A stretch of 64,000 nucleotides of DNA from a bacterium (GTDB lineage Bacteria > Patescibacteriota > CPR2 > UBA1875 > JAJYID01), in NCBI GenBank assembly GCA_021796415.1, contig JAJYJC010000001.1:18742-82741 (forward strand). The letters run 5' to 3'. The notes below the pieces were generated by a model that had not been told where the DNA came from, made no database searches, and saw nothing but the letters and a program-made list of their open reading frames with translations. Positions 1 to 15,367 of this stretch are shown here, one piece after another. Position 1 is the stretch's first letter; each line of letters begins with the position of its first letter. Both the position numbers and the translations under genes were made by a program.

Positions 1-358
1 CGATGCCGCTTTCGATAACCCTTCCGACATCGTAGTTTTGGAGCACATAGCTAAGTCCGGAGACGTGGTCTGCATCCGGATGGGAAACAAAAACGAGATC
101 GATCTTTTTCCTGTAAAACGGCAGGTTTTTGCCAAGGCATTCCAAGACCTTCTTGTCCGGACCGCCGTCAACCAAAGCGCTTTTGCCGTCGGGGAATTCA
201 AGCAAAGCCGCATCCCCTTGCCCGACATCGCAAAAAATAACTTGAAGCGCATGGTGTTCCGGAGTAAAAACATTTACCCAGATAAATAAGAAAGCGACGC
301 TCAGCACAACGAGAACGGGAAAAGAAAATATCTTTTTTGCTTTGCCTTCAGTTTGCAA
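1..358 (-). CDS. ComEC C-terminal metallo-beta-lactamase domain protein. Partial: it runs off the window start. It is a separate ORF or a frameshifted continuation of the ComEC competence domain gene.
   Basis: The minus-strand reading frame stays open from position 358 to position 1. It encodes ...QVIFCDVGQGDAALLEFPDGKSALVDGG...VFVSHPDADHVSGL, a Lactamase_B start that includes the HxHxDH motif. A TTG lies 4 nt after AGGAGG and overlaps the upstream ORF's stop, in a +1 frame relative to that ORF. Confidence 0.55.
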   Translation of the reverse strand, partial: MQTEGKAKKIFSFPVLVVLSVAFLFIWVNVFTPEHHALQVIFCDVGQGDAALLEFPDGKSALVDGGPDKKVLECLGKNLPFYRKKIDLVFVSHPDADHVSGLSYVLQNYDVGRVIESGI

Positions 359-1862
359 GGCGCCTCCTTCTCAGCCTTTTGATTATAAATATAAGCTCAA
401 GAACAATGATGTAGTAAATCACAGCGCTTAAAAAAGATATGCTGATCCCGCTTACAGCCGCAAACGGCAGGGAGGCAAAGAAGTGAATAGCCCAAATTAT
501 GGATTTCAAGGCAAAAAGTGCCGTCCACGAAAAGACGAGGCCAAACCCTTGCCAAACCATACCTATAACAACCGAGATAAATCCAAGCAGCATGACAAAC
601 GGAATGAAAGGAAGAATTACCAGATTGGCCGCAAATGACACCAGCGAGAAAGTGCCGAAGTAATAAATAATTAAAGGATAAGCCATCACTTGGGCTCCCG
701 CCGTCATGGCAAGCATATCTTTTATAAATTCATTTTTTATCTTCAAAACACTTTTGATGAGAGGCGCTAAATAAACGATGCCGATAAATGCGGCAAATGA
801 GAGCTGAAAACCCACATCGAAACGCAGAATAAACGGGTTTAAAATGACCATTATGGCAGCGCTTATGATAATCGCCATCGTCGCCGAAGATTGCCGGCCG
901 ATTCTATATGCAAGCATCATCATCGCCCCCATGACACCGGCCCTAACCACGGAAGACGAAGAACCCGTCATAATTACGAAAGCGATAATGGCGGCAAGAG
1001 GCATATAAAAACTGAGTTTTGCCGACTTTCGCTTAAATATCAGCCTCAAGCCCTCAATAATGACAGTGATATTGAATCCCGAAAGGGCGATTAAATGCGT
1101 GGTGCCGCTTTTTTGCAAGTCTTGAGTCAGCCAGTTTGGCAGATTCCTCTTTATGCCAAGGAGCAATCCGGCGAGAAATGAAGCCTCCGGTTCGGGAAAG
1201 GTGGAGTTAATGCTATTTTCGAATCGATTTCTGATGCCGTAAAGCGCGCCTTTTAGCCGCATCCATGCCGACATCTCACCCGGCGCGCTCTTTGCAATCA
1301 CGGGAAAAGCCATTTCATATGCTATCCCCTTAACCAATAAAGAATTTTTTTTATTATCAGCCGGTTTTTCTATATTTCCTTGAACCGTGACGTAATCGCC
1401 GTAATGAACATTTGTAAAAGGTTTTAGCACCAAGAGGATTTTCGCCTTCTTTCCATTGTCTGCAAGCACAGCTTGTACCGACTTGTCCGTTTGTTCCGGA
1501 GGCTCGGCTATCTGCCCCTCGATTTTTATATTTTCGCCTGTCGGATAGGTGATATTCTCAAAGCTCGCTTGATAGCTTTGAAATCTTAAAACGCCAAGGA
1601 AAAAGAAGGCGATAGCGATCATGGAAATCCAAAGCCACTTCTGCGGAATGAAAGAGATGCTCAAAATAAAAAAGATACCGAAAAGGGCGAAAAGGCTGAG
1701 ACTTGACACATCAAAATAAGGGGAAACAAGAATGCCAAGCATGATGGCACACAAAATAACCGCCGCAAAAACTGCTTTCATGTTTAGATTATGCTTAACA
1801 AGCATAAAATTTTCAATAACCAAATGCCAACGATCAATCAATTTGCAGATACTAAGCCTCAA
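348..1862 (-). CDS. comEC: ComEC/Rec2 competence-domain integral membrane protein (DNA uptake channel)
   Basis: Polytopic membrane protein containing the Competence-domain motif (HLIALSGFNITVI). The MBL domain is encoded immediately downstream in a different frame. Confidence 0.8.
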   Translation of the reverse strand: MRLSICKLIDRWHLVIENFMLVKHNLNMKAVFAAVILCAIMLGILVSPYFDVSSLSLFALFGIFFILSISFIPQKWLWISMIAIAFFFLGVLRFQSYQASFENITYPTGENIKIEGQIAEPPEQTDKSVQAVLADNGKKAKILLVLKPFTNVHYGDYVTVQGNIEKPADNKKNSLLVKGIAYEMAFPVIAKSAPGEMSAWMRLKGALYGIRNRFENSINSTFPEPEASFLAGLLLGIKRNLPNWLTQDLQKSGTTHLIALSGFNITVIIEGLRLIFKRKSAKLSFYMPLAAIIAFVIMTGSSSSVVRAGVMGAMMMLAYRIGRQSSATMAIIISAAIMVILNPFILRFDVGFQLSFAAFIGIVYLAPLIKSVLKIKNEFIKDMLAMTAGAQVMAYPLIIYYFGTFSLVSFAANLVILPFIPFVMLLGFISVVIGMVWQGFGLVFSWTALFALKSIIWAIHFFASLPFAAVSGISISFLSAVIYYIIVLELIFIIKRLRRRRLAN

Positions 1863-2028: not shown

Positions 2029-2058
2029 AAAATGGGATTTGTGTCGTACAATAATACT

Positions 2059-3006
2059 ATGGCCAGCGTAAATGACCTTGTCAGCGACTTTTTGGAATAT
2101 TGCGAGATAGAGAAAAATCACTCGGATCTGACGATTCGAAACTACGAACACTATCTCGGCAGGTTTTTGGATTTTGCCGAAAAAAACAGAAGTACCGATC
2201 TGCGCCCCGAACAAATCACTCTGGATATGGTGCGAAAATACCGCCTGCACTTAAACAGGCTGACAAATGGTATGGGGCAGCATCTGGCGAAAATCACCCA
2301 AAACTATCATATAATCGCACTTCGCGCCTTCCTGAAATATCTGGCTAAAAGAGACATTAAGTCATTATCGGCTGAGAAGCTGGAACTTGGCGACGCAAAT
2401 AGAAAGCAAGTTGAGTTTCTGGAAATAACCGAGGTGCAGGATCTTCTCTCGGCGCCCGAAAAATATCCGTCAAAAAAAGAGATTATTACTCTTCGCGATG
2501 CGGCAATTTTTGAGACCCTTTTCTCAACCGGCCTTCGCATCAGCGAGCTGGTCGGTTTAAACCGCGAGCAAATTAATCTGGAAAGGGGCGAGTTTAATGT
2601 CAGGGGCAAAGGCGGCAAAAACAGAGTTGTTTTTCTATCAGACCAAGCGTCAAAAAAAATTAAGGAGTATCTAGCCAAGAGAGCTGACAATGCCAAGCCT
2701 CTTTTTATACATTATTCGGGAGTGAAAGAAGATTTGGATGACGGCGAATACATGCGCCTCACTCCAAGGAGCATCCAGAGAATTGTTTCCCGTTATGCGC
2801 ATCTTTGCGGCATCACGAAAAAAGTGACGCCGCATATGCTTCGCCACTCTTTTGCCACCGATTTATTAATAAACGGCGCCGACATCAGAAGCGTCCAAGC
2901 AATGCTCGGCCATGCTTCCATCACCACAACCCAGATTTATACCCACTTAACTAATACTCGACTCCGCGAAGTCCACAAAAATTTTCACAATAAAAAGAAA
3001 AACTGA
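2059..3006 (+). CDS. Tyrosine site-specific recombinase, XerC/XerD family
   Basis: C-terminal catalytic motifs are present (HMLRHSFATDLLINGADIRSVQAMLGHASITTTQIYTHL). There is an N-terminal SAM-like domain. The ORF is open from 2032, but the ATG at 2059 is the likely start. Confidence 0.85.
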   Translation: MASVNDLVSDFLEYCEIEKNHSDLTIRNYEHYLGRFLDFAEKNRSTDLRPEQITLDMVRKYRLHLNRLTNGMGQHLAKITQNYHIIALRAFLKYLAKRDIKSLSAEKLELGDANRKQVEFLEITEVQDLLSAPEKYPSKKEIITLRDAAIFETLFSTGLRISELVGLNREQINLERGEFNVRGKGGKNRVVFLSDQASKKIKEYLAKRADNAKPLFIHYSGVKEDLDDGEYMRLTPRSIQRIVSRYAHLCGITKKVTPHMLRHSFATDLLINGADIRSVQAMLGHASITTTQIYTHLTNTRLREVHKNFHNKKKN

Positions 3007-3270: not shown

Positions 3271-4308
3271 TTATTGTTGCCACCTAAGAAATAGACCAAC
3301 ATTCTCTATGAGCGTATCAGTGCCACTAGTCATTGTGAGTTGGCCAGCTCCACCACGGTCTATAGAAGATGATTGTGGGTAAAAAGCATAATTCGGTGTT
3401 ATTGCAGGAGAATTGTCTAATGTTACAACACCTATGCATGTTCCATTTCCATTATCGTCAACAACTTTCAGGGAAGTCGTGCTTCCCGGCCTATATGTAA
3501 GGATAAATTGGAAAGGGCCTGTTCCGGTGCTGGTATCAATGTAAGTTGATGGTAGTGCCGGAGGCAAAGCACTGCCAAGAGCCATTTGCTCCAGATAAAT
3601 TTTTTTATCTTCTATATCTAGGCCGATTGCATTATTATTGCTATCACCTTCAGCTAAACCGGTTTGGAAACTGCCGCTTACGGGATTTATGTAACCGCTG
3701 AAAGTGTAGGCCGAGGCACCGGGGGGCAGATAAAATCCGATGCCTTGATAATCCTTAGATAAATTAATAAATTGATTGCTGTAACCTGGAACATTAGTTA
3801 GAGCCACATTATTATCGTTAAAAGATATTGAATTACCCTGAGTTAATGGGATGTCGCTCTGGCTGCCTTCTATCCTGCGGGCGATATCACCCGCCTCTCC
3901 CTGGCTGTAATAACAATACACATATTCTCCGAGTCTAGTTGTGGAGCAATTACGCGAGGGATCCCAAGGCAGAGGCTGAGAGTCAGTGCCACCAACTTTA
4001 CCTACTTTAAACACCTGAAAATCGTAGGTTGCAGAAGACGTAGAGTCTACGGGATTATTAGATTTTTTACCTGCTGTATCTATGCTGTTTGCAATATAAT
4101 TATTGACCCTTTCCATACCTGCTTCTGCAGCCATATACGCCTGAGTGGAACTATCAATCTCACTTGATTGCCTGATCTCGGTAATAATGACCGCCGTCAC
4201 CGCGCTAACGCACAAAAAGTACAGGCCTATGGCAAGCATTGTCCATAAAAGCACCGTGCCTTTTTGATTTTTCATGACCTTATTGTTTATCATTTTAAGC
4301 TTTCTCAT
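3271..4308 (-). CDS. Putative pilus-assembly protein (PilX_N-like N-terminus), secreted or membrane-anchored
   Basis: The N-terminus (KGTVLLWTMLAIGLYFLCVSAV) resembles PilX_N. It is the first gene of a minor-pilin cluster. Confidence 0.35.
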   Translation of the reverse strand: MRKLKMINNKVMKNQKGTVLLWTMLAIGLYFLCVSAVTAVIITEIRQSSEIDSSTQAYMAAEAGMERVNNYIANSIDTAGKKSNNPVDSTSSATYDFQVFKVGKVGGTDSQPLPWDPSRNCSTTRLGEYVYCYYSQGEAGDIARRIEGSQSDIPLTQGNSISFNDNNVALTNVPGYSNQFINLSKDYQGIGFYLPPGASAYTFSGYINPVSGSFQTGLAEGDSNNNAIGLDIEDKKIYLEQMALGSALPPALPSTYIDTSTGTGPFQFILTYRPGSTTSLKVVDDNGNGTCIGVVTLDNSPAITPNYAFYPQSSSIDRGGAGQLTMTSGTDTLIENVGLFLRWQQ

Positions 4309-4361
4309 ATTTTACTCCGCCTTTCATGCAACATCACACTATCTTCATACTTTGTCCGGCT

Positions 4362-4410
4362 GGATTCCCGCCGGAGTTTATGCTGAACTCTGATTCAGTG
4401 CGGGAATGAC
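4362..4410. repeat. Hairpin repeat (GGATTC...GAATGAC family)
   Basis: ggattcccgccggagtttatgctgaactctgattcagtgcgggaatgac. Confidence 0.7.
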
Positions 4411-4441
4411 AGTGTGAATGGTTTTTAACATTTTACATCCC

Positions 4442-4987
4442 TTAAAGCTCATTGTGCATTATCAGATAATCTTCAAAGTCCATTTTCTCACCCGTGCCGG
4501 CTGAAGTTTCCCCGTTTGGAAGATTTGTTTCTTCTATTTGCATCTGATATTTCAAGGTTTTCGGATAAGTTGCTACAACTCCGCGAGAGACATTAAAACT
4601 GTCGACTTTTACTTGGTCTGTTGTCAAATTGTACGCACCTGAATCCATTTTCAGTTGGTTGCTTTGGCATTCGAAATTTATGGTTGTGCTATCCATCATG
4701 GTTAAGCTTAGCGTATCACCGGTCGAGCAAAGGTCATCTCCTGTCGATAAATTTCCAGAGCCTGTAACACTTACAGCTTTAGCTTCTCTGGTGATTCTTG
4801 AGAAGGTTTCCGAGGCAAATCTGCCTTCATCCAGCATATTGGAGGTCTGCCGGTACTGCGACTGAAGCTTTTGGATGGTTATAAAAAATCCGACAGTCAA
4901 GGTTAGAACTAGAGTAAAAAGCGCCATACTGACAACCAGTTCGACAAGAGTCATCCCCTTGTTATTTAATTTAAATATCTTCATCAT
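4442..4987 (-). CDS. Type IV minor pilin / pseudopilin (prepilin-type N-terminal domain)
   Basis: The N-terminus is KGMTLVELVVSMALFTLVL (a class III signal). Start and stop overlap the neighbouring genes. Confidence 0.6.
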   Translation of the reverse strand: MMKIFKLNNKGMTLVELVVSMALFTLVLTLTVGFFITIQKLQSQYRQTSNMLDEGRFASETFSRITREAKAVSVTGSGNLSTGDDLCSTGDTLSLTMMDSTTINFECQSNQLKMDSGAYNLTTDQVKVDSFNVSRGVVATYPKTLKYQMQIEETNLPNGETSAGTGEKMDFEDYLIMHNEL

Positions 4988-5547
4988 TGTTTTGACATTA
5001 TGGTTGATACGCTTGTGGTAACATCACTGTTCGGACCGGTGACCGTGACCGTGATGTAATAATATCGGTCAGTACAATCATAGTCATTCGGGCTTATCGG
5101 GGTTTGGCCGCAATCAGAGCCTGTTTGAAAATTAGAGCCAGTGATAATAGGGTCGGAACTCAGAAGACTGCTTAAATTTTGAATGGTTATATTTCGCGAG
5201 AAATTGTCGAAATTTGAAATTTTGTTCGGAGTGCCGGTAGTCTGAATGGTTTCGTCGTTCGTGGATTCAGTGTCTCCTTTGATAACAAAATTTGTAGTCC
5301 CAGAAGCAACGCTAGAGCTAATCGATGAAAAGCTGCAACCGATATCGCGCTGATGCCTGGCTATTTCAATCCCTTCTTCCGCCAAAGTATTGGCTTTGGT
5401 GATGTCTGATGAGTTGTAAACCAGATTTTTAGTGGCAACGGTCAGGCTCATCATAGCTGCCAAGGATATGCCAATAATCCCAAAGGCAACGACAGTTTCG
5501 ACAAGTGTTTGTCCTTTTTTGCTCTTTACTATGAAAAATTTCTTCAT
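4984..5547 (-). CDS. Type IV minor pilin (prepilin-type N-terminal domain)
   Basis: The N-terminus is KGQTLVETVVAFGIIGISLAA. Confidence 0.6.
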   Translation of the reverse strand: MKKFFIVKSKKGQTLVETVVAFGIIGISLAAMMSLTVATKNLVYNSSDITKANTLAEEGIEIARHQRDIGCSFSSISSSVASGTTNFVIKGDTESTNDETIQTTGTPNKISNFDNFSRNITIQNLSSLLSSDPIITGSNFQTGSDCGQTPISPNDYDCTDRYYYITVTVTGPNSDVTTSVSTIMSKQ

Positions 5548-6233
5548 TATTTCAACTCCGCACTGCCCGCCGGGCTTATTACAACTTGGTGCGACGAACC
5601 GCCGTTCGGATCAGCGAATGTAATAGTAACTTGGCCTAAATTAAGCGAATTGGTCGGACTCCAAATCTGAGTAGACTGATCTTTGCTCCAATCGCTTGGT
5701 GAAGACATTGCGTAAAATTTACCATATGGACTTGTGAAAAAAAGGTAAAGAGTACCAGAGATTCCATCCGATGCATTACTTGCTGTTACCTTAAGATTCT
5801 GTTTGAAGTTAACGGACGTAGAAGGATCGAGTGGCGTGGTAGTGCCTTGCGTTGGCGTTGAAGCGCCGGTGTCACAAAATGGAGTAACGCTAAGGGGTGC
5901 CGGTGTGGCGGAAGTGTCGATAGACGTCCCAAGCTGGAGTTTAATCATCTTTATAACTGTTGATCTGCCATCACAAACACCTCCGGGATCGCTAATTTTC
6001 TTGGTCGAAACCGCATCCACAAATGCCTGGCGCATCTGTGTCTGGAAGGTATTTGCCACATAATTGATGTAGTTTTCCTGCCTGGCAACCGTAAATCCGC
6101 TAAAGACCAAAATCATCAGAAAAGAAAGGATACCCATCACCACAACCATTTCAACCAGGGTAAATCCGTCCCGAGATGATATTCTTTTACTTAATCTTGA
6201 AACCCTCCGTAACATAATAAAAACCTTTATCAA
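5547..6233 (-). CDS. Type IV minor pilin (prepilin-type N-terminal domain)
   Basis: Contains DGFTLVEMVVVMGILSFLM, with the G|FTLVE cleavage/methylation motif. Confidence 0.6.
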   Translation of the reverse strand: MIKVFIMLRRVSRLSKRISSRDGFTLVEMVVVMGILSFLMILVFSGFTVARQENYINYVANTFQTQMRQAFVDAVSTKKISDPGGVCDGRSTVIKMIKLQLGTSIDTSATPAPLSVTPFCDTGASTPTQGTTTPLDPSTSVNFKQNLKVTASNASDGISGTLYLFFTSPYGKFYAMSSPSDWSKDQSTQIWSPTNSLNLGQVTITFADPNGGSSHQVVISPAGSAELK

Positions 6234-6236
6234 TTT

Positions 6237-6640
6237 GTCATTCCCGCGCAGGCGGGAATCCAGTCAGTCAATGTTATCATATAAATCTTTCCATTTGGGA
6301 TTAAAATCTTCTATAAGTTTCATCTTCCATTGTCTGTTCCACTTCTTGATTTGTTTTTCTCTTTTGATAGCCTCTTCAATGCTATTTGTTTCTTTAAAGT
6401 AAACAAGATTGTGGCATTTGTATTTTTTGGTAAAGCCTTCGATTAAATCATTTTTATGTTCATATGCTCTTTTCTTTAAATCTTTGGTAACTCCCGTGTA
6501 GAGCGTTCCGTTTCTGTCGCTGGCCATGATGTAGACATAGTAGGATTTCATTAATAATTATTTTAACTCAACTTTATACTTTATTTAAGCCTCACGGTTC
6601 TTGCTTAGCTTGACTGGATTCCCGCCTGCGCGGGAATGAC
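6237..6640 (-). mobile_element. GIY-YIG nuclease gene flanked by inverted palindromic hairpin repeats (copy 1, a REPIN-like unit)
   Basis: gtcattcccgcgcaggcgggaatcc sits at 6237-6261 and its reverse complement at 6616-6640. The entire unit is 100% identical to 10616-11019. Confidence 0.7.
6264..6551 (-). CDS. Stand-alone GIY-YIG nuclease (UPF0213/YhbQ-like), copy 1
   Basis: YYVYIMASDRNGTLYTGVT...RAYEHK...GFT is a GIY-YIG motif. The protein is 95 aa. Confidence 0.85.
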   Translation of the reverse strand: MKSYYVYIMASDRNGTLYTGVTKDLKKRAYEHKNDLIEGFTKKYKCHNLVYFKETNSIEEAIKREKQIKKWNRQWKMKLIEDFNPKWKDLYDNID

Positions 6641-6664
6641 AGAGATGAGAATAAATCATTTTCC

Positions 6665-7564
6665 TTATAAAAACATTCTACCATAAACAGCAAGAATTTG
6701 GACAAGAAAGAAAAAGCTTATAAAGGTTCCTGTCACCAGAAACGGCCCAAAAGGAATCTTTGACCCTAATTTTTTCTGGCCGCTAACTAAACTGATAGCA
6801 CCAAAAACTGCCCCCAAGATAAATCCAGCGTACAAGGCGACAATTATTCCCGGCCAGCCCAAAACAAGCCCCATAAAAGCAACAAGCTTAATGTCGCCAC
6901 CCCCCATCCATTTGCCTCCGGAAATCATCGCCAGAATATAGAAAAACCCTCCTGCGACAAGACCTGAGAGTAGATGGTCAATTAAATACTGATAATGGCC
7001 AAGCAGTGCAGTATTAACTCCCACAAATACAAGCCCCAAAACCAAAAGGGTATAAATAATTTCATTTGGAATGATCTGATGCTTTAAATCATAGACAAAA
7101 ATAGCAGCTAACCCGGCAGCAAAAACAAGCCAAAAGAGGAGGTTGAAAATACCCAACATTGACTGGATTCCCGCCTGCGCGGGAATGACAGAGGAAGGAG
7201 CGGGAATGACAGTGAGAGTAGAAGCAGAAAAATGAATAAAGAAACTACCTGCCTGCCCGGAATCCAATCCGGCACCTGATAAAAAATGAGGTCCGATGGC
7301 AGCAAACAAAAACCCCGTCGCCAGCTCCACTAACGGATATTGATCCGAGATATTTGCTTTGCAATATCTGCATTTTCCGCCCAAAACCAGCCAAGAGACC
7401 ACCGGAAAGAGATCATACCACTTAATTTCTTTTTTACATTTGGGGCAAAATGATCTGCCTCCCAAACCTCTGCCAATTTCCAAACGATAAATCAAAGCAT
7501 TCAAAAAACTGCCAATGATAAGGCCAGCTAGAAAAAATAAAGTCAAAACGATATAAAGATGCAT
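6665..7564 (-). CDS. pilD: Prepilin peptidase (A24 family) carrying an in-frame hairpin-repeat insertion
   Basis: Has an N-terminal CxxC...CxxC zinc domain (CPKCKKEIKWYDLFPVVSWLVLGGKCRYC) and GSFLNALIYRL. The segment [17 protein letters not shown] is encoded by the repeat at 7165-7210. Confidence 0.8.
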   Translation of the reverse strand: MHLYIVLTLFFLAGLIIGSFLNALIYRLEIGRGLGGRSFCPKCKKEIKWYDLFPVVSWLVLGGKCRYCKANISDQYPLVELATGFLFAAIGPHFLSGAGLDSGQAGSFFIHFSASTLTVIPAPSSVIPAQAGIQSMLGIFNLLFWLVFAAGLAAIFVYDLKHQIIPNEIIYTLLVLGLVFVGVNTALLGHYQYLIDHLLSGLVAGGFFYILAMISGGKWMGGGDIKLVAFMGLVLGWPGIIVALYAGFILGAVFGAISLVSGQKKLGSKIPFGPFLVTGTFISFFFLVQILAVYGRMFL

Positions 7565-7639
7565 GAGAATATTATAAGTACTAAAAACCCAAAATACAAA
7601 AGGGAATTTCACTTGCCAAGGGACGGACCCTTGGCAAGC

Positions 7640-8419
7640 TTAGCCGCCTAACTTTTGCAAGATATAATCCTTGAATCCCGTAACTCGCTCTATGTCGCTT
7701 GGATTCATCAGAAAAGGCTGCACATCTTTAGCAAGAGCATCAAAATCAAGCGTCTCAACCTTCGAAAAAAGCTGTTTCTTGATTTGCTTCTCGGAATATC
7801 CATGGGCTTTCTCCAGAAAAACATAGTCCGGCTCTGTTTTGCCCAATAAATAAGAAACATCATAAAAATCACGTCCCTTCTCTCGCTTTCTTTCCATGAT
7901 TGCAATAAGTTTCTGAGCCAAAATAACCGAGATGCTGTTCACTAATATTTTCCTGTAAACATCAAAGTTATTTAAAATATAAATTTCCGGCTTCACAAGC
8001 TCGCGCTTCAGCGTCGCATCAATCCGCACCAGAATCTTCTCCCCTTTCTGGCCGGATATACCATGTTTAAACAGTAAATCGGGAAACTTTATATAGCAAT
8101 GATATGCTTCTTTTTCTACGAAACGAAACTCTATCTCAAAGCCTTTAAGCTCCATCGTCTTTGCAGTTTTGTCAAGAAGTGTTTTGAAACCGTCGAAAGT
8201 AAGGCCAAAGTTGTCAAAGTCCAAATCCTCGGAAAAGCGCGAGCTGCCATACACTATTCTGATAGCTGTCCCTCCGATAAAGCTTAGCTTTTCGCTCTCA
8301 TTTTGCTGAAAAATGGAATCCAAAAGTTCATACTGCAGGTATTCGACCAAAGCAGCTTTTGGATTTTTTCCAAACACATCGCCTGGAAAATTCGTTTTAA
8401 TTTGCTCCATCGTTAGCAT
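7640..8419 (-). CDS. AbiEii-family nucleotidyltransferase toxin (type IV TA / abortive infection)
   Basis: Contains FIGGTAIRIVYGSSRFSEDLDFD, a DUF1814/AbiEii-type motif. Its start is adjacent to the stop of the upstream partner gene. Confidence 0.6.
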   Translation of the reverse strand: MLTMEQIKTNFPGDVFGKNPKAALVEYLQYELLDSIFQQNESEKLSFIGGTAIRIVYGSSRFSEDLDFDNFGLTFDGFKTLLDKTAKTMELKGFEIEFRFVEKEAYHCYIKFPDLLFKHGISGQKGEKILVRIDATLKRELVKPEIYILNNFDVYRKILVNSISVILAQKLIAIMERKREKGRDFYDVSYLLGKTEPDYVFLEKAHGYSEKQIKKQLFSKVETLDFDALAKDVQPFLMNPSDIERVTGFKDYILQKLGG

Positions 8420-9055
8420 TTATTTCTCCACCGTAATCTTTAAAATACGATCTAACTTTTTGCTGTTAAAAACTTCTGCGTACTGCATCAGTTTTTCTTT
8501 ATCGACAGCCTCACCCATGGAAAACCGGTTCAGCCTCAGCTCTTCTATATCTGCCTCGTCATGCAACTTGGCAAGATTCAAATACAAATAGTCTAAAAGC
8601 GCTTTTTCAGGTTCGGCCAAAAGATACATACCCTTGCCGTCATCTACTTTTTTGTATCCAAAAAACAAATCCTTTTTGAGATGACGATAGGCGAATAAGC
8701 CTATATCGTTTTTGAAAGTTCTAGTTGTCTTTGATGTGACAGATGTCACATTATAAACCATCTCGGGGATGATACCGTAGTGCGACAGAGCCCATTCAAG
8801 GCTGATATAGCTTGGTTGATAGATTGTAAAAGCAACGCTTTCATTACTAACTAAATCTTTTCTTGCAGTAAAAAGATATATGCCGTTTTTCAACTTGATC
8901 AACAACTCTTCATCCCTCCACAAAGACAGTTGATATGGGTAGACCCTAAGGCCTGTTTTTCTAATGTCTGCAAGAGAGAAGATTGGCTCTTTGATCTGTC
9001 GATTCATCTCGTTATATTTCATTTTATTATCACTTTCAATAATAAACTGAAACAA
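8420..9055 (-). CDS. AbiEi-like antitoxin / transcriptional regulator partner of AbiEii
   Basis: A ~210-aa protein immediately upstream of the AbiEii gene and end-to-end adjacent to it. This is the typical abiEi-abiEii architecture. Confidence 0.45.
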   Translation of the reverse strand: MFQFIIESDNKMKYNEMNRQIKEPIFSLADIRKTGLRVYPYQLSLWRDEELLIKLKNGIYLFTARKDLVSNESVAFTIYQPSYISLEWALSHYGIIPEMVYNVTSVTSKTTRTFKNDIGLFAYRHLKKDLFFGYKKVDDGKGMYLLAEPEKALLDYLYLNLAKLHDEADIEELRLNRFSMGEAVDKEKLMQYAEVFNSKKLDRILKITVEK

Positions 9056-9062
9056 TATTAAA

Positions 9063-9194
9063 TTAAAAGTTAGCTTGTGTCAAGAATTTTTTGCCTTCAA
9101 AACGGCAGGTGAGAACATTCAAAAAACTGCCGGCAGTAAGACCGAGAAAGAAAAGAAACAAAATCAAAAAGATCAGCATAAATATATTATACAT
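9063..9194 (-). pseudogene. Truncated duplicate of the pilD 5' end (43-codon fragment)
   Basis: The fragment MYNIFMLIFLILFLFFLGLTAGSFLNVLTCRF aligns with the PilD N-terminus LTLFFLAGLIIGSFLNALIYRL. The upstream hairpin ttgccaagggg...ccctttgccaa is also duplicated (7607-7640 versus 9226-9260). Confidence 0.5.
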
Positions 9195-9327
9195 TAAACC
9201 CGGGAGGACAATTTTTTTCATTCACCCATTTGCCAAGGGGCAGCCCTTTGCCAAGCTTGGCAAAAAATGACAAAAATAACATACACAAAATCAGCTTAAT
9301 GAGAGAGTTATCCCCTACATTCCTCTA

Positions 9328-9882
9328 TCACTCTTGATGGAAAATATCGCCAGCCGGAATAATACTAGTGTTAAAATTACATTTACATGTATCAGCAACA
9401 GTGCATACCCCTGTTGCTAAAAGTTTTGCCGCCGTTTCTTCCGTCACAACCCAAAGCCTATATTCGTTCGGTACCGAATACATATGCACATAACAAATAG
9501 TTCCACCGTTTTGAGCCTGGTTTGTAGGAGGGTGAGACGGATCTGGTAAATATTTATTTAGAGATTCACCGTTTTGTAACATGACATAAGCCTGCCTATC
9601 ATTGTTACTACCGGAAACCCCTTGATCAACACCAGGCGGCATACTCTGATTATCACCATAATATTTTTCTATATAAGTTTCTATACTTTTAGCGTCGTTT
9701 CTAAGCTGCGTATCTCTTGCTTGCTGCCTGGCAATAGCAATGGCCCCAATTATCAACGCGGCCAAAACAGCAATAATGGCCATTACTACAACCAATTCAA
9801 TAAGTGTAAAACCTTTTTTTGTACGAAGATTGACTCGCTTTTTAATATTTCCCATAACAACCACGGCGAGTAGCCTCGCCAT
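9328..9882 (-). CDS. Type IV pilin (major pilin-like, PilA family)
   Basis: Contains KKGFTLIELVVVMAIIAVLAALIIGAIAIARQQ, a canonical type IVa pilin N-terminus. There are C-terminal Cys residues. An alternative start lies at 9855. Confidence 0.7.
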   Translation of the reverse strand: MARLLAVVVMGNIKKRVNLRTKKGFTLIELVVVMAIIAVLAALIIGAIAIARQQARDTQLRNDAKSIETYIEKYYGDNQSMPPGVDQGVSGSNNDRQAYVMLQNGESLNKYLPDPSHPPTNQAQNGGTICYVHMYSVPNEYRLWVVTEETAAKLLATGVCTVADTCKCNFNTSIIPAGDIFHQE

Positions 9883-9947
9883 GGCTAGTTATAATGGACA
9901 TCAAAAACCTTCAAGTGAAGAATTTTTGGTAGAAACTGGCACCATCA

Positions 9948-10385
9948 TTAAGGACCCGATATAGTGCCGATGTTATAACCACCTTGACCGTTTGTATTGC
10001 AGTTCCACGGTGCGATTGTAATTGTGTAATTGTGGTTAGTGGAACTACTTACTATATTACCTCCACCACTATTGTCTTGGGTACCACCCCCGTTTCCTGT
10101 ACACGCGCTAGTCGAGAGGTTTGTTGCTGCTATGTTTAGAGTGGTGTCGGTGGTGTTGTCGCTAATCGCCGTACCTAATATGTCAGGATAATTCTTGTTA
10201 GAAGCATAATAAGCCTCCAAAGCAGTTTGAACGGTCCTAGCATTGGACCTGTTGGCAGTTTCAGTAGCTGTGTGTCTGGCGATTGTAATAGCTCCGATGA
10301 TAAGAACCGCTAGAATAGCGATAATTGCCATAACGACAACTAACTCAATAAGGGTAAAACCTTGTTTTTCTTTTAGCTTTCTCAT
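9948..10385 (-). CDS. Type IV pilin (PilA family)
   Basis: Contains KQGFTLIELVVVMAIIAILAVLIIGAITIARH...TALEAYY. Confidence 0.75.
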   Translation of the reverse strand: MRKLKEKQGFTLIELVVVMAIIAILAVLIIGAITIARHTATETANRSNARTVQTALEAYYASNKNYPDILGTAISDNTTDTTLNIAATNLSTSACTGNGGGTQDNSGGGNIVSSSTNHNYTITIAPWNCNTNGQGGYNIGTISGP

Positions 10386-10449
10386 ATTTCACCTCCTTTC
10401 TAATTTTCTTTTTATGTTGATATTTAACCAATATCCTTAAGGTGTGTCA

Positions 10450-10475
10450 ATGATATTCTGTCAGCAGAATATCAT
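10450..10475. promoter_or_regulatory. 11-bp perfect inverted repeat (candidate operator) in the pilin upstream region
   Basis: atgatattctg-tcag-cagaatatcat. It lies about 65 nt upstream of the pilin start and has no T-tract on either side. Confidence 0.3.
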
Positions 10476-10615
10476 CAAATTCTAATCTCTAAATGCTAAA
10501 TGCTAAACAAATCATAAATTTTTAAATTCAAATTATTTAAACACTAATTCGGGATTTATCAAGTATTGCGCCAAGTATTTTCATTGCAACTCATTTTCAA
10601 AAATCATTATCCCCT

Positions 10616-11019
10616 GTCATTCCCGCGCAGGCGGGAATCCAGTCAGTCAATGTTATCATATAAATCTTTCCATTTGGGATTAAAATCTTCTATAAGTTTC
10701 ATCTTCCATTGTCTGTTCCACTTCTTGATTTGTTTTTCTCTTTTGATAGCCTCTTCAATGCTATTTGTTTCTTTAAAGTAAACAAGATTGTGGCATTTGT
10801 ATTTTTTGGTAAAGCCTTCGATTAAATCATTTTTATGTTCATATGCTCTTTTCTTTAAATCTTTGGTAACTCCCGTGTAGAGCGTTCCGTTTCTGTCGCT
10901 GGCCATGATGTAGACATAGTAGGATTTCATTAATAATTATTTTAACTCAACTTTATACTTTATTTAAGCCTCACGGTTCTTGCTTAGCTTGACTGCATTC
11001 CCGCCTGCGCGGGAATGAC
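10616..11019 (-). mobile_element. GIY-YIG nuclease gene flanked by inverted hairpin repeats (copy 2, identical to copy 1)
   Basis: Identical to 6237-6640 except for one mismatch in the right hairpin (gcattc versus ggattc). The flanking sequences differ. Confidence 0.7.
10643..10930 (-). CDS. Stand-alone GIY-YIG nuclease, copy 2
   Basis: The protein is 100% identical to copy 1. Confidence 0.85.
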   Translation of the reverse strand: MKSYYVYIMASDRNGTLYTGVTKDLKKRAYEHKNDLIEGFTKKYKCHNLVYFKETNSIEEAIKREKQIKKWNRQWKMKLIEDFNPKWKDLYDNID

Positions 11020-11133
11020 AGAGAGAGGCAGTTCTTCTTTTTGGATCATATGCCTTTTTGTTTATAATTTCTGTCATTTGATATTGTTTAGTGTTTCGGA
11101 TTTCGTGCTTCGGATTTCGAATTTATTAAAGTA

Positions 11134-12342
11134 CTAGTGTTGCATGAAGATGCCGACATTGTAGATGGGCATGATGATGGAGATAATTATGCTGCCGACA
11201 ATTAGACCCATAACCACTATCATGATAGGCTCAAGCAGCGACTGAAAGCTTTTGACCCAGTTGTCTATCTCGTCGTTATAGTAGTCCGCCAAGTTTGAAA
11301 GCATAGAGTCAATCTCACCGGTGTTTTCGCCGACGCCGATCATCTGCGACACCATGACGGGAAATATGGGATTTTCCTTGATAGCTTGCGACAAACTGCC
11401 CCCTTGTTTTACCTTGCCCCTGGTTTCTCTAATGGCATTTTCATAATGGATGTTTGGCATGGTATCCCCGACGATTTTTAATGCTTCAAGAATGGGCACT
11501 CCGGAGGATATAAGGCTCGACATAGTGCGCGAAAACATCGCCATATAGGACATTTGCAGGAAGTTGCCGAGCAATGGTATGCGGAGCTTCAAGCTGTGCC
11601 AGATGTATCTGCCCGAGTCAGTTTTCACATACATTCTAAGGGCAAAGAAAATAGCCACAACCATCAAAATGACCAGATAATAATAGTGGGCCATCACATT
11701 GCTAAAACCCATAAGTATTTGGGTGGGCAAGGGGAGCTGAGCGTTGCCGAAGCTTGAGTAGAGTGTCTGCATCTGAGGCAAAACGAATATCATCATGAGG
11801 GCGACCACACCGATAACGACACAGAGGAGGAATGACGGATATATAAAGACGGTTTTAATCTTTTTGGCTGTTTTATAGCTTTTTTCAGCTTGGGATGCCA
11901 TATATTCTAAAACCTCATCAATTTTACCGCTTGCCTCGCCGGCCGCAATCATAGAAAGATCAGTTTTGGTAAAGACATCCGGAAATCTCGAAAATGTTGT
12001 TGCCAAGCTATCACCGGCCTCCACATCGCGGATCATTTGCTCTACCATTTTTTTAATCTGATCAGAATGAGTCTGTTCAAGCAATGTGGATAGTGATTGA
12101 GATATTGGAAGGCCGGCATTTGCCATGGTTGCCAGCTGTCGAATAAAGAAAACTTTGTCTTTGACCTTCACCTTATTTAAAAAAGGAATAGCAAATTTTT
12201 CGTGTTTTTCTTCCTTGATTCTGACGGGATATAGCTTCTTGGCAGTAAGCAAAGTTGAAGCTGAACTTTCGGTTTCCGCCTCAACAGTTCCCGTTACCAG
12301 CTCGCCTTGATTATTTCTGGCTTTATATGTAAATTCGCGCAT
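11134..12342 (-). CDS. pilC: Type IV pilus assembly platform protein PilC (GspF family)
   Basis: Two T2SSF-type repeats within a polytopic membrane topology. The ORF's N-terminal extension (IPDQVRNDKKG) is encoded by a hairpin repeat, so the likely start is the ATG at 12342. Confidence 0.85.
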   Translation of the reverse strand: MREFTYKARNNQGELVTGTVEAETESSASTLLTAKKLYPVRIKEEKHEKFAIPFLNKVKVKDKVFFIRQLATMANAGLPISQSLSTLLEQTHSDQIKKMVEQMIRDVEAGDSLATTFSRFPDVFTKTDLSMIAAGEASGKIDEVLEYMASQAEKSYKTAKKIKTVFIYPSFLLCVVIGVVALMMIFVLPQMQTLYSSFGNAQLPLPTQILMGFSNVMAHYYYLVILMVVAIFFALRMYVKTDSGRYIWHSLKLRIPLLGNFLQMSYMAMFSRTMSSLISSGVPILEALKIVGDTMPNIHYENAIRETRGKVKQGGSLSQAIKENPIFPVMVSQMIGVGENTGEIDSMLSNLADYYNDEIDNWVKSFQSLLEPIMIVVMGLIVGSIIISIIMPIYNVGIFMQH

Positions 12343-12354
12343 GATTCCTTTTTT

Positions 12355-12440
12355 GTCATTCCGGACTTGATCCGGAATCAAGTTTTATTTATATGGATCC
12401 TGAATCCCCGCCTGCCGGACGGGCAGGAAGTTCAGGATAA
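12355..12440. repeat. Composite hairpin repeat (two units) at the pilC 5' end
   Basis: gtcattccggacttgatccggaatc followed by ggatcctgaatccccgcctgccggacgggcaggaagttcagga. The same two-unit architecture occurs at 52683-52770 and 38107-38153. Confidence 0.7.
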
Positions 12441-12452
12441 CAATGGAAAAAA

Positions 12453-13529
12453 TTACCCGTGAAGCAATCTTTCAAGCTCCTTCTGGTCGATTGCATAACC
12501 CTTGGCTTCATCAAGGGTAATTCTGCCTGTCTTTATCAAGTTCGCAAGCGTTCTGTCCATAGCCTGCATGCCTTCTGAGGCACCGGTTTGTATTACCGCC
12601 TCGAGCTGATGTGTTTTTTGCTCGCGAATAATGTTTCGTACCGCGGGAGTCACTACTAAAATCTCAGCGGCAGCTACTCTTCCGCCACCAATGGAAGGTA
12701 TAAGCCTTTGGGAAACGATTCCCTGCAAGATATTTGAAAGCTGTACCCTTATCTGCTGCTGCTGATGCGGCGGAAAAACATCAATAATTCTGTCAACTGA
12801 TTGGGCGGCGTTGTTGGTATGCAAAGTAGCAAAAACCAAATGTCCGGTTTCAGCTATGGTAATGGCGGCTGCAATAGTCTCGAGATCGCGCATTTCACCG
12901 ATCAGAACGACATCAGGGTCTTCCCTCAAAACACTGCGAAGGGCGGCTGCAAATGATCTGGTATCATAGTGCACCTCGCGCTGCTCGATTATTGATTTAT
13001 TATGATTATGCGTGTATTCAATCGGGTCTTCAACGGTAATGATGTGGCAGGCTCTTTCTTTATTAATCTTATCAACCATTGCCGCCAGCGTTGTGGACTT
13101 GCCTGATCCGGTCGGCCCGGTTACAAGTACTAAACCTCTCGGATATTCCGTGAACTTTTCAAGGACTTTAGGCATACCCAGTTGCGCCAAACTTCGGATA
13201 TTTACCGGGATAAGCCGGAGAGCTAAACCGACATTGCCTTTTTGGTGGTAAGCATTCGCTCTAAACCTTGCTAAGTCACCATAAGTAAAGGAAAAGTCAA
13301 CCTCTTTGTCACGCTCCAAAATATCTTTTTGGACATCATCTAAGATTGAATATGTGAGAGCCTGTACATCGGTATCTGTTAGACCACTCACCCCGGCTAT
13401 AGGCCTTAACGCACCGTCAATTCGAAGCATGGGAGGCACGCCAACCGTCAGATGAAGATCGCTTGCATCATGCTTAATGACTTCTTCAAGAAAATTCTCA
13501 ATTTTTAATTTTGTGGTCTGCTCAGGCAC
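12453..13529 (-). CDS. pilT: Twitching-motility ATPase PilT
   Basis: Contains LVLVTGPTGSGKSTTLAAMVDKIN (Walker A), HIITVEDPIEY and an Asp box. Confidence 0.85.
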   Translation of the reverse strand: MPEQTTKLKIENFLEEVIKHDASDLHLTVGVPPMLRIDGALRPIAGVSGLTDTDVQALTYSILDDVQKDILERDKEVDFSFTYGDLARFRANAYHQKGNVGLALRLIPVNIRSLAQLGMPKVLEKFTEYPRGLVLVTGPTGSGKSTTLAAMVDKINKERACHIITVEDPIEYTHNHNKSIIEQREVHYDTRSFAAALRSVLREDPDVVLIGEMRDLETIAAAITIAETGHLVFATLHTNNAAQSVDRIIDVFPPHQQQQIRVQLSNILQGIVSQRLIPSIGGGRVAAAEILVVTPAVRNIIREQKTHQLEAVIQTGASEGMQAMDRTLANLIKTGRITLDEAKGYAIDQKELERLLHG

Positions 13530-13585: not shown

Positions 13586-15367
13586 TCATTCCTCAGAAGT
13601 GGTTCTTACAACTTCCTCGACGGTAGTGATACCGGCCAGCGCCTTTAAAAAGCCGTCTTGCTGCATGGTAACCATACCTTCTTTTACTGCCTGATCTTGG
13701 ATATCACTAGCTGAAGACTGGGACGTTATCAGATCCTCTATCGTTGGGCTGACATTAAATATCTCGTATACCCCAATTCTTCCCCAAAACCCTGTATTCT
13801 TGCAGGATTCACAGCCTTTCCCTTTGTAAAGCTTAAAGGTTTCATCTTCGACAAAAGGCAATTTATCAAAACCAAGCTCCGTGGTCTTTTCCTTGGGATC
13901 ATTCTTTGAGGGCAGAACCCCTTTCAATGAAGCTTTAATGGCTTTGGTCAGTGCGAGAGTTGCCCTGTATTCTACCTTGCAGTTTTCACAAATTCTTCTC
14001 ACCAGCCTTTGCGCCACTATTGTATTAACCGTAGATGCGATAAGAAACGGCTCAATGTCCATGTCAATCAATCGCGGCAAAGCGCTTGCGGCTGAGTTTG
14101 TATGCAATGTGGAAAGGACAGTATGGCCGGTCAAAGCTGACTGAACGGCAAGATCAGCCGTCTCTTTGTCGCGAATCTCTCCAACCATTATGACGTCCGG
14201 GTCCTGGCGGAGCATTGACCGAAGACCTGATGCAAATGTAAGCCCGACGCCATTATTTACCTGGATCTGGTTTATGCCCGGCACATTATATTCAACAGGG
14301 TCTTCGATGGTTATAATGTTGACACTCGGAGTATTTAGCTTGGACAAAATAGCGTAAAGTGATGTTGATTTACCCGAACCAGTCGGTCCAGTCGACAGAG
14401 TCATGCCATGAGGTTTCTTGAAGCTTTCCTCAATAATCCTGTAAGCTCTTCCCTTGATGCCTAAGTTTTCTAAGGTAATCATACCGTTTGTCTTATCAAG
14501 AAGCCTGATGACTACCTTCTCTCCATATACTATTGGCGTAATCGAAATACGAAGGTCAATTTCGCGGCCTTCCATATTTAGCTGAAATCTGCCATCCTGA
14601 GGTACCCGATGTTCGTCAATTTTCAGATTAGATAGAATCTTAATTCTGGAAACTAAGGCCGGATGAATATGTTTCGGGAGGGCCATGGTGTTATAAAGCA
14701 AGCCATCAATCCTATAACGAACTTTGATATCCTTGTCTCTCGGTTCAATGTGGATGTCCGAAGCACGAGACTTAGCAGCATATTCCAAAATTGTATTTAA
14801 TGCCCTCGTAATAGGCGCGTCTTGCGTAATCGTTGCGGCATTATTCTCTTTTTCTTTTTTCTTCTCATTTTCCTGCAGGCTGGACTCCGGCTGTTTCTGT
14901 ATATCACCTATAACCGTTTCGACCTCAAATGAATAATCGTCATACTGCCCCAACAGTTTTGAGATGCTTTCTGCTGAAGCTAAATATGGCTTTACTTTTA
15001 GTCCCGTCTTTTTTTCTATAAACTCAATAGACTGAATGTCATTTGGGTTTAACATTGCTACATTTAAAAATTCCCCAACTTTTCCAAAAGGTATAATCTT
15101 GTATTTTTCAGCGACTTTTTTAGAAATAATATCAAGGATCTGTTTGTCAATCCTTTTTGCCTTTAAATCCACATAAGGAAGACCGGAACTGACCGCTACT
15201 ACTTTGGTTAGCTCTTCATTAGATATTCCAGGCATATCACGCAAAATATTCTCGACAGATTTTCCGGTTTCTGCACTCTGTACTTTAATGAGATCAAGCT
15301 GTTTTTGGCTTATGAGACCGAGCTTAACCAGAAGATCTACCAGCTTTTTTTCATCTCTGACAGCCAT
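13586..15367 (-). CDS. pilB: Type IV pilus assembly ATPase PilB (GspE family)
   Basis: Has an N-terminal T2SE_N domain and LSTGPTGSGKSTSLYAIL, plus a C-terminal zinc-binding CxxC pair. Confidence 0.85.
   Translation of the reverse strand: MAVRDEKKLVDLLVKLGLISQKQLDLIKVQSAETGKSVENILRDMPGISNEELTKVVAVSSGLPYVDLKAKRIDKQILDIISKKVAEKYKIIPFGKVGEFLNVAMLNPNDIQSIEFIEKKTGLKVKPYLASAESISKLLGQYDDYSFEVETVIGDIQKQPESSLQENEKKKEKENNAATITQDAPITRALNTILEYAAKSRASDIHIEPRDKDIKVRYRIDGLLYNTMALPKHIHPALVSRIKILSNLKIDEHRVPQDGRFQLNMEGREIDLRISITPIVYGEKVVIRLLDKTNGMITLENLGIKGRAYRIIEESFKKPHGMTLSTGPTGSGKSTSLYAILSKLNTPSVNIITIEDPVEYNVPGINQIQVNNGVGLTFASGLRSMLRQDPDVIMVGEIRDKETADLAVQSALTGHTVLSTLHTNSAASALPRLIDMDIEPFLIASTVNTIVAQRLVRRICENCKVEYRATLALTKAIKASLKGVLPSKNDPKEKTTELGFDKLPFVEDETFKLYKGKGCESCKNTGFWGRIGVYEIFNVSPTIEDLITSQSSASDIQDQAVKEGMVTMQQDGFLKALAGITTVEEVVRTTSEE

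Follow-up and report, generated by a model that had tools for sequence, protein, structure and literature searches.

How a small toxin-antitoxin (TA) module came to lie inside an operon for type IV pili, beside a degenerate copy of the start of one of the pilus genes, is the question raised by the locus described here. The locus is part of a 64,000-nucleotide stretch of contig JAJYJC010000001.1 (the window, by which the whole stretch is meant throughout), which is from an uncultured ultrasmall bacterium related to Patescibacteria. A pair of AbiE genes is located in this operon on the minus strand, between the pilin genes and the prepilin peptidase gene pilD. AbiE is a type IV TA system, recently reclassified as type VII, that is involved in abortive infection, and the pilus is a known phage receptor. 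Related genomes indicate that this part of the operon is a recurrent swap site, or recombination hot spot, for AbiE modules. With moderate confidence, we propose that the cassette came with a replacement start of pilD, which was joined by homology on the pilD side and illegitimately on the other, and that the AbiE type was swapped later.

The AbiE pair and the pilD relic

The features that carry the argument are the following (coordinates are those of the window; ORF, open reading frame).

6665-7564, minus strand: pilD, intact prepilin peptidase gene, 299 aa per public records (longest ORF to 7612), identified by its Pfam domains
7478-7644, minus strand: downstream repeat copy, with the hairpin, a TATAAT box that precedes the ATG by 7 nt, and codons 1 to ~29 of intact pilD
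7613-7637, no strand: perfect palindromic hairpin (-24.9 kcal/mol, z -4.2), right boundary of the cassette
7640-8419, minus strand: abiEii, nucleotidyltransferase toxin gene, 259 aa (Pfam PF08843, PADLOC AbiEii)
8420-9022, minus strand: abiEi, candidate antitoxin and autorepressor gene, 200 aa (longest ORF to 9055; PADLOC and structure model)
9055-9083, minus strand: promoter-like site of the AbiE operon, TTGACA-N17-TAATAT, left boundary of the cassette
9063-9179, minus strand: pilD' fragment ORF, a relic, 38 codons from the pilD-homologous ATG (longest form 9063-9221, 52 codons)
9096-9261, minus strand: upstream repeat copy (relic), with a degenerate hairpin, TATAAT and pilD codons 1 to ~38
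9230-9254, no strand: degenerate palindromic hairpin, upstream copy (-21.3 kcal/mol, z -1.8)

The original prediction had named the two genes AbiEi and AbiEii, and both names proved correct. AbiEii matched Pfam PF08843 (E 2.3e-22, 80.5 bits against a cut-off of 22.5) and the PADLOC AbiEii profile (E 1.1e-87 over residues 1-253). All four motifs defined for the AbiEii/DUF1814 proteins (I, hG[GS]; II, R..DhD; III, KLxAaxxR-like; IV, +DxxD; Dy et al. 2014, PMC3985639) were present, as IGG at residues 48-50, RFSEDLD at 61-67 (R61, S63, D65 and D67), KLIAIMER at 170-177 and RDFYD at 183-187. AbiEi gave a full-length match to the PADLOC AbiEi profile (E 3.8e-63). It fell below the curated thresholds of both Pfam AbiEi_4 (E 0.21), the family originally suggested for it, and the NCBIfam equivalog TAA_AbiEi (30.7 bits against a cut-off of 150), and a sequence search of the PDB returned chance kinase matches only. 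Its membership is therefore settled by the PADLOC profiles and the structure model. An AlphaFold2 model based on 47 homologues had a predicted local distance difference test score (pLDDT) of 94.5; its top PDB match in Foldseek was 6y8q, the AbiEi of Streptococcus agalactiae (E 5e-06, probability 1.0, 191 aligned columns, template modelling score 0.5), and Rv2827c of Mycobacterium tuberculosis (1zel) was the third match. Segment 7640-9022 is confirmed as a complete AbiE module, consisting of a winged-helix AbiEi and a DUF1814 nucleotidyltransferase AbiEii.

The antitoxin gene comes first and the toxin gene second, on the same strand and behind a single promoter-like site. As had been noted, the genes are adjacent end to end: the abiEi stop TAA (8420-8422) is followed at once by the abiEii ATG (8419). 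The most likely start of abiEi is 9022, because all homologues and the PADLOC profile begin there; an exact look-up of the 211-aa AbiEi ORF gave no match, since public calls use later starts. In annotation, abiEi should thus begin at 9022, and the pilD-like ORF of 38-52 codons should be treated as a relic and not as a gene. The promoter-like site TTGACA-N17-TAATAT (9083-9055) is the best sigma-70-like match in 6200-10600 (10/12).

An imperfect direct repeat of roughly 150 bp that includes a hairpin was also part of the original prediction, and it was recovered by alignment of the flanks. Segments 7478-7644 and 9096-9261 (~167 bp) are identical at 113 of 159 positions (71.1%) in a global alignment with a score of 43, compared with -11.8 +/- 5.9 for shuffled sequences (z 9.3) and 2 for the best of ~1000 random segments of the window. 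The two best blocks of a repeat search were in register, with spacings of 1618 and 1617 nt. The local DNA score was 43 (shuffles, 21 +/- 3), and at the protein level the fragment ORF scored 85 against PilD (32 +/- 5). Each copy consists of a 10-5-10 palindrome, a TATAAT box 5-7 nt before an ATG and the first pilD codons. The upstream copy had been placed at 9063-9260. A degenerate repeat is indeed found there, but its likeness to pilD stops at GAAGGCAAAAAA (~9090), where the AbiE promoter begins, and 9055-9083 belongs to this promoter and is not derived from pilD. Similarly, the PilD fragment, first given as 43 codons, has 52 codons from its first ATG (9221) or 38 from the pilD-homologous ATG (9179). 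It matched Pfam A24_N_bact at E 0.13 only and is probably a non-functional relic. Intact PilD matched A24_N_bact (E 1.9e-29) and Peptidase_A24 (E 7.8e-18); its translation shows CPxC/CxxC and GGGDIKL motifs, and public protein P0001 is 100% identical to it.

Contigs of three other samples (L041, L042 and L001) were 100% identical to the window over 6476-10995, 7226-9115 and 7484-9148, so the arrangement is not an assembly artefact. From the TATAAT box to codon 29, the relic is 60% identical to its own pilD and 59-72% identical to the pilD of every other lineage. It also keeps the ...RFEGKK form of other lineages, whereas intact pilD has ...RLEIGRGLGG (EGKK versus EIGRGLGG). As the relic is no closer to its own pilD than to those of others, the flanks are unlike a duplication of the window's own pilD at integration.

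The hairpin pattern TTGCCAAGGGnnnnnCCCTTGGCAA occurs exactly twice in the 64 kb, at 7613-7637 and 9230-9254, with none expected by chance. The downstream hairpin lies 2 nt past the abiEii stop and ~50 nt ahead of the pilD start. It was ruled out as a canonical terminator because no T-run lies behind it, and no terminator was found between abiEii and pilD. An inverted match of 9 nt between the two ends of the cassette, CTAACTTTT (near 7648-7657 and 9065-9074), was attributed to chance; it is absent from the other cassettes of the same AbiE type (type A, see below).

A TATAAT box was observed 5-7 nt before the pilD ATG in the window (7565-7580) and in seven of the related loci described below (L003, L023, L029, L030, L031, L035 and L043), and the relics are likewise preceded by such a box. 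This position suggests a leaderless pilD transcript.

Related pilD loci and exchange of AbiE types

The window was compared with pilD loci whose PilD is 57-87% identical to its own and with loci reached via AbiEii homologues. In three lineages (L003, L030 and L043-46), the site is empty, and pilins or another upstream gene stand directly before pilD. Such loci without the cassette had been anticipated, and because pilD directly follows upstream genes in these three related lineages, the AbiE pair is an insertion. Five further lineages (L023-28, L029, L031/32, L035 and L036) carry an AbiE pair immediately upstream of pilD in the same orientation. In L036, AbiE follows the pilins and an additional ParE/Phd pair is present before the contig end.

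Some side features of these loci were recorded. The additional genes of L036 are a ParE/PhdYeFM pair at 4915-5458, after AbiE, and a Fic gene lies before the pilD relic in L035 (3861-4913). A palindrome, TCGTATCA-N3-TGATACGA, recurs beside the Fic gene, upstream of the relics and, in L029 and L035, ahead of the AbiE promoter.

Two types of cassette were distinguished. Type A (window, L029, L035 and L036) has a 200-aa AbiEi whose gene abuts abiEii, with 64-83% identity within the type; type B (L023 and L031) has a 209-aa AbiEi whose gene overlaps abiEii by 14 nt, with 65-74% identity within the type (65-73% in pairwise comparison; 74% is the tblastn value for AbiEii). Identity between the types is 37-44%. 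Every cassette of either type starts at a TTGACA box. In every type A cassette, an inverted repeat is present between the -10 box and the abiEi start, with arms TTATTA..TAATAA in the window, L036 and L040 and TTGATA..TATCAA in L029 and L035; both arms have changed between lineages, and the spacer is 4-10 nt. This pattern suggests a putative AbiEi operator as in S. agalactiae.

Compared with its sister lineage L023/L024, the window is 87% identical in PilD protein, 85.5% in pilD DNA (6665-7635), 82-83% in the minor pilin genes and 95-96% in an Xer-like gene (compared at 1926-2987). The relic region (window 9077-9284, L023 822-1028) is 95.2% identical, or 92.6% when the left flank is included (9077-9306). 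Between relic and pilD the alignment breaks for 1441 bp, of which only a 76-nt patch can be aligned: at the place of the window's type A cassette, L023 holds type B (~40% identical), with the same relic and the same left junction. The boundaries of the swap are the -35 box on the left and the hairpin on the right, exactly where homology resumes. Sample ERZ27233565 contains both strains (L041, window type; L026, type B sister). The relic ORF of L023 is frameshifted by a 1-nt deletion, which indicates that the relic is not kept as coding sequence.

The insertion is not an event particular to this genome, because the sister lineage shares relic and left junction with the other AbiE type, and four more lineages with other junctions carry AbiE at this place; the shared relic and junction also imply that the insertion event is old. 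The high DNA identity of the relics is better explained by recent recombination between the two sister populations, and the pilus locus is a mosaic of recombination tracts. The co-occurring sister populations, which differ by an exact swap of AbiE type, represent a natural experiment in which allele frequencies and phage pressure could be traced in the source metagenomes. In addition, a 22-nt spacer past the type B abiEii stop of L023 (2488-2511) resembles the end of the window's type A abiEii (7638-7665): GCAGGTTAGATAGC versus GCAAAAGTTAGGCGGC. It may be the scar of a replaced type A cassette, and it is too short for certainty.

These data bear on whether AbiE is an ancestral, functional member of the pilus operon that some lineages have lost, with the pilD' repeat as an unrelated local tandem duplication. 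The position and orientation are the same in six lineages with PilD 57-87% identical to the window's, no terminator separates abiEii from pilD, and the L035 relic resembles its own pilD. However, more distant pilD loci (28-40% identity) had no AbiE within 6 kb, and a scan of JGI metagenomes with PilD found, partial matches aside, distant relatives only (<=39% identity), none with AbiE. AbiE homologues of the window's type occur at 60-62% identity in unrelated contexts, and the family is widespread in Patescibacteria. Moreover, two types that are ~40% identical within flanks that are 85-95% identical cannot be a product of vertical divergence, and relics always lie exactly at the left boundary of the cassette. 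We regard ancestral membership as very improbable.

A different possibility is that the pair, whatever its origin, has become wired into the pilus/competence operon of the clade and is not mere cargo. The place before pilD is kept in six lineages despite the change of type, transcription would meet no terminator before pilD, and the non-coding relic and promoter region is 95% identical between the sisters compared with 85% for pilD. If this were true, transcripts started at the AbiEi-repressed promoter would extend into pilD and the genes for minor pilins, and prepilin processing, pilus attachment, DNA uptake and entry of pilus phages would be tied to the state of an abortive-infection switch. 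We consider such wiring unlikely by a wide measure.

The remaining genes of the neighbourhood are listed below.

348-1862, minus strand: comEC, end of the pilus operon
2032-3006, plus strand: Xer-like tyrosine recombinase gene, 4.6 kb from the cassette
3271-6233, minus strand: minor pilin genes, downstream of pilD
9328-9882, minus strand: second pilin gene, 184 aa (Pfam N_methyl, E 5.8e-08), directly upstream of the relic and cassette
9948-10385, minus strand: first pilin gene of the type IV pilus operon
11134-12381, minus strand: pilC of the type IV pilus operon
12453-13529, minus strand: pilT of the type IV pilus operon
13586-15367, minus strand: pilB of the type IV pilus operon

No tRNA genes were found in the window and no known RNA families in 6000-11200, and the base composition of the cassette is not distinct from that of its flanks (GC 0.37-0.41 versus 0.35-0.46). 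The pilin encoded at 9328-9882 has a C-terminal part unlike that of L023. More generally, the major pilin genes (window 9328-10385, L023 199-750) differ outside the conserved N-terminal methylation region and form a second variable segment, which adjoins the AbiE site yet is separate from it.

Several small repeats were also observed in the operon. Two 100% identical 381-nt units (6236-6616 and 10615-10995), each encoding a 95-aa GIY-YIG protein and bracketed by inverted copies of palindrome TGTCATTCCCGCGCAGGCGGGAATCCAGTCA, sit in two of its intergenic gaps; homologous units occur in L003, L029, L031 and L037, and the units resemble a family of small mobile elements. A member of this palindrome family is present in frame within pilD, in the linker between the two PilD domains (7159-7218), and a palindrome of this type was also found inside pilD of L023 (2924-2962), L029 (3066-3103) and L030 (1208-1239). 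Another dispersed repeat, with a 92% match to window 4358-4418, lies in pilD of L031 (6840-6900). Small genes for '23S rRNA intervening sequence proteins' (PF05635) occupy different positions of the pilus operon in L003 (2181-2570) and L031 (7438-7797), a further sign that this operon tolerates small insertions.

Junctions and history of the site

Which of the two pilD starts is the original one could be approached through their promoters. In L029 and L035, the relic is preceded by a U-type promoter, CTCTCYGCAAGGGAGTTTTTTGTTGCTATAAT, which directly precedes intact pilD at the empty sites of L030 and L043; in L036, the cassette is attached to this promoter at a break within TATAA. Where intact pilD stands behind AbiE, other sequence precedes it (U-type promoter comparison, alignment scores 35-64 versus a null of 12.6 +/- 2.4). 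Because it keeps the promoter found before pilD at empty sites, the L029/L035 relic is the resident gene start; the working pilD start of these lineages would then lie in sequence brought with, or rebuilt beside, the cassette.

The left end of the cassette is an A-rich run followed by TTCTTGACA, which is joined at points that differ among lineages:

Window and L023: left junction at codon ~38
L035: left junction at codon 35
L029: relic with an internal deletion
L036: left junction inside the -10 box (TATAAT)
L031: left junction at the end of the hairpin; here the duplicated flank lacks coding sequence and consists of 115 bp from upstream together with the hairpin

The cassette is joined within GGCAA(A/G)AAAA in the window, L023 and L031.

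We suggest that incoming DNA composed of an AbiE cassette, a pilD promoter and a pilD 5' end recombined into the locus, by a homologous join on the pilD side and an illegitimate join at A-rich microhomology, GGCAAAAAA, on the other. The original 5' end of pilD (hairpin, promoter and first ~38 codons) would have been displaced, leaving the 167-bp upstream repeat as a scar, and the pilD start now in use would have been supplied by the incoming DNA. The route may have been homology-facilitated illegitimate recombination of linear DNA or a topologically equivalent single crossover with a circularised fragment, and ordinary double-crossover allelic exchange could afterwards have produced the swap between types A and B. 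Homology-anchored acquisition of this kind is suggested because the pilD boundary is homologous, the other boundary is variable and falls at microhomology, the gene start is displaced and the cassette is exchanged as a whole. Naturally competent bacteria are documented to integrate DNA through a homologous join at one end and an illegitimate join at the other (PMC3240628). Saccharibacteria, which belong to the candidate phyla radiation, are naturally competent (PMC10187176/PMC10633639), and comEC is part of this operon; uptake of DNA from relatives is thus plausible.

The original prediction was one of integration with duplication of the target. In its full form, a mobile defence/TA element would have integrated site-specifically in the pilD 5' end, and the ~150-bp flanks would be a duplicated att-like target. 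Direct repeats do flank the insert, relatives with empty sites exist, and an Xer-like tyrosine recombinase gene is present 4.6 kb away (2032-3006). Insertion into the pilus locus is upheld by the empty sites, but duplication of the window's own pilD is not, given the 60% versus 59-72% identities, and no recombinase accompanies the cassette. The 1.4-kb insert, with only abiEi and abiEii between the repeats, also lacks terminal inverted repeats and a short target-site duplication; neither copy of the repeat is the closest relative of the other, at 60-71% identity; and at least four left-junction positions occur among lineages. The empty-site lineages L003 and L043 have the Xer-like gene at the same position, so that it is a conserved neighbour rather than cargo. 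In addition, a scan of viral contigs with AbiEii found no close relative of the cassette. There is little probability that such an element was at work here.

Another candidate is the hairpin itself, as a recombination site. A hairpin-bounded module would then be moved in trans, by a Y1 (IS200/REP-associated; REP, repetitive extragenic palindrome) transposase or by Xer, in the manner of dif modules. In the window, L023 and L031, the cassette has a hairpin on either side, and the swap ends on the right at the hairpin. The left junction of L031 is exactly at the hairpin end, and a Y1_Tnp gene of L031 is flanked by members of this hairpin family. On the other hand, the type A cassettes of L035 and L036 have no hairpin at the site, a ~140-bp pilD relic separates the left hairpin from the cassette in the window, and no Y1 transposase was found in the 64-kb window. 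With its 10-nt arms, 5-nt spacer and multiple copies in L031, the palindrome is unlike a dif site, and a copy inside the L030 pilD ORF points to behaviour like that of REPs or miniature inverted-repeat transposable elements (MITEs). Transport of a hairpin-bounded module seems to us improbable; the hairpin is best read as a dispersed REP/MITE-like repeat that by chance lay upstream of pilD and was duplicated with it. Given its place at the right end of the swap, direct involvement of the hairpin retains a slight probability. Among side observations on this family, GCCAAGGnnnnnCCTTGGC, are five copies in 15 kb of L031 (4840, 6430, 11347, 11828 and 12051), of which three lie within or near a Y1 (IS200-like) transposase gene (PF01797); the copy inside L030 pilD is at 1398. 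Two narrower interpretations were rejected: a dif/Xer site, given the 5-nt spacer, the multiple copies and the presence of the Xer-like gene beside empty sites as well, and an integron cassette, as there is no intI and no attC and the hairpin is a simple 10-5-10 palindrome missing in L035 and L036.

A single ancient event deserves more weight, though on balance we doubt it. Here one Campbell-type integration of a circle with AbiE and the pilD promoter and 5' region would have been followed by descent, relic erosion, losses and one replacement between types A and B. A single crossover with a circle yields exactly the order homology, insert, homology; the window and L023 have relic and left junction in common; L029 and L035 have homologous spacers behind their relics; and in L031 the cassette lies between two copies of a 115-bp sequence from upstream of pilD, hairpin included. 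However, it requires scarless loss in three lineages whose pilD directly follows the native promoter, as well as deletions that each end precisely at the -35 box of the cassette (L031 and L036), and within type A the identity rankings of AbiEii and PilD disagree.

Several points weigh against the hot spot that we favour. The homology of the spacers in L029 and L035 favours a shared origin for those two, and the L035 relic shares lineage-specific synonymous variants with its own pilD, which points to local duplication or gene conversion and not to import; together these observations favour one old gain followed by erosion in those lineages. A single ancient insertion with lineage-specific relic erosion could also account for most of the junction differences. 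The microhomology is short and A-rich and could be a coincidence, and the recombination mechanism is inferred from junction anatomy alone. Nine lineages were sampled, all from metagenomes, with relatedness judged by PilD identity only, and a bootstrapped neighbour-joining tree of the ~100-nt pilD 5' ends and relics was unresolved (support <=55%), too weak to distinguish a single insertion event from several. With regard to defence, the AbiE of S. agalactiae gave no phage protection in E. coli (bioRxiv 10.64898/2026.01.19.700257).

If repeated acquisition at a hot spot is nevertheless correct, small defence/TA modules can spread among ultrasmall, probably competent bacteria without a recombinase of their own, with the conserved, essential pilD as a homologous landing pad and the relics of gene starts as scars.

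Comparison with known systems

By analogy with characterized relatives, AbiEii would be predicted to block translation by adding nucleotides to tRNA 3' ends, and AbiEi would be predicted to restrain it through induced auto-phosphorylation of the toxin and repression of the operon. On this likeness, the pair would serve to arrest growth, to abort phage infection or as an addiction module. As with the MenAT toxins, the activity to be expected is the addition of nucleotides to the acceptor ends of tRNA (PMC7450476, PMC10435456). In S. agalactiae, T65 of AbiEii is auto-phosphorylated (bioRxiv 10.64898/2026.01.19.700257), and in the window S63, two residues before the first catalytic Asp, is at the T65 position. 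We found no report of this AbiE/pilD-relic arrangement in the searchable literature; the pair itself is a regular AbiE representative, its setting is of modest interest, and the arrangement varies themes that are well known.

Like the AbiE systems of Lactococcus lactis and S. agalactiae, the pair is bicistronic with the antitoxin first and has a DUF1814/PF08843 toxin with motifs I-IV. It differs in being chromosomal, in a Patescibacteria-like pilus operon, rather than on a plasmid or integrative element. The AbiEi fold matches 6y8q, and an inverted repeat is present in the promoter region, as in S. agalactiae, although sequence identity to the S. agalactiae AbiEi is only ~18%. With the MenAT systems of M. 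tuberculosis (MenT1/3/4 with MenA antitoxins; Rv2827c), the pair shares the toxin superfamily and a COG5340-type antitoxin fold, and it is very distant from them in sequence.

As a site, the locus resembles defence/TA hot spots between core genes: the flanks are conserved (pilins and relic on one side, pilD on the other), the cargo is A, B or nothing, and extra TA or selfish genes appear at the spot (ParE/Phd in L036, Fic in L035). It differs in its tiny size (1.4 kb, one system), its position inside the operon for an essential surface machine, and its left flank, which is a relic of the downstream gene. Integrative elements at the 3' ends of tRNA and tmRNA genes offer a second parallel, in that the displaced gene end stays as a partial duplicate while the incoming sequence completes the gene; here, in contrast, there is no integrase and no conserved crossover point, and it is the 5' end with its promoter, not the 3' end, that is replaced. 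The third parallel, drawn here from scars alone, is with homology-facilitated illegitimate recombination in transformation (PMC3240628). Both combine a homologous anchor, here pilD, with an illegitimate join at short microhomology, and the host clade has pilus and ComEC uptake genes at this very locus.

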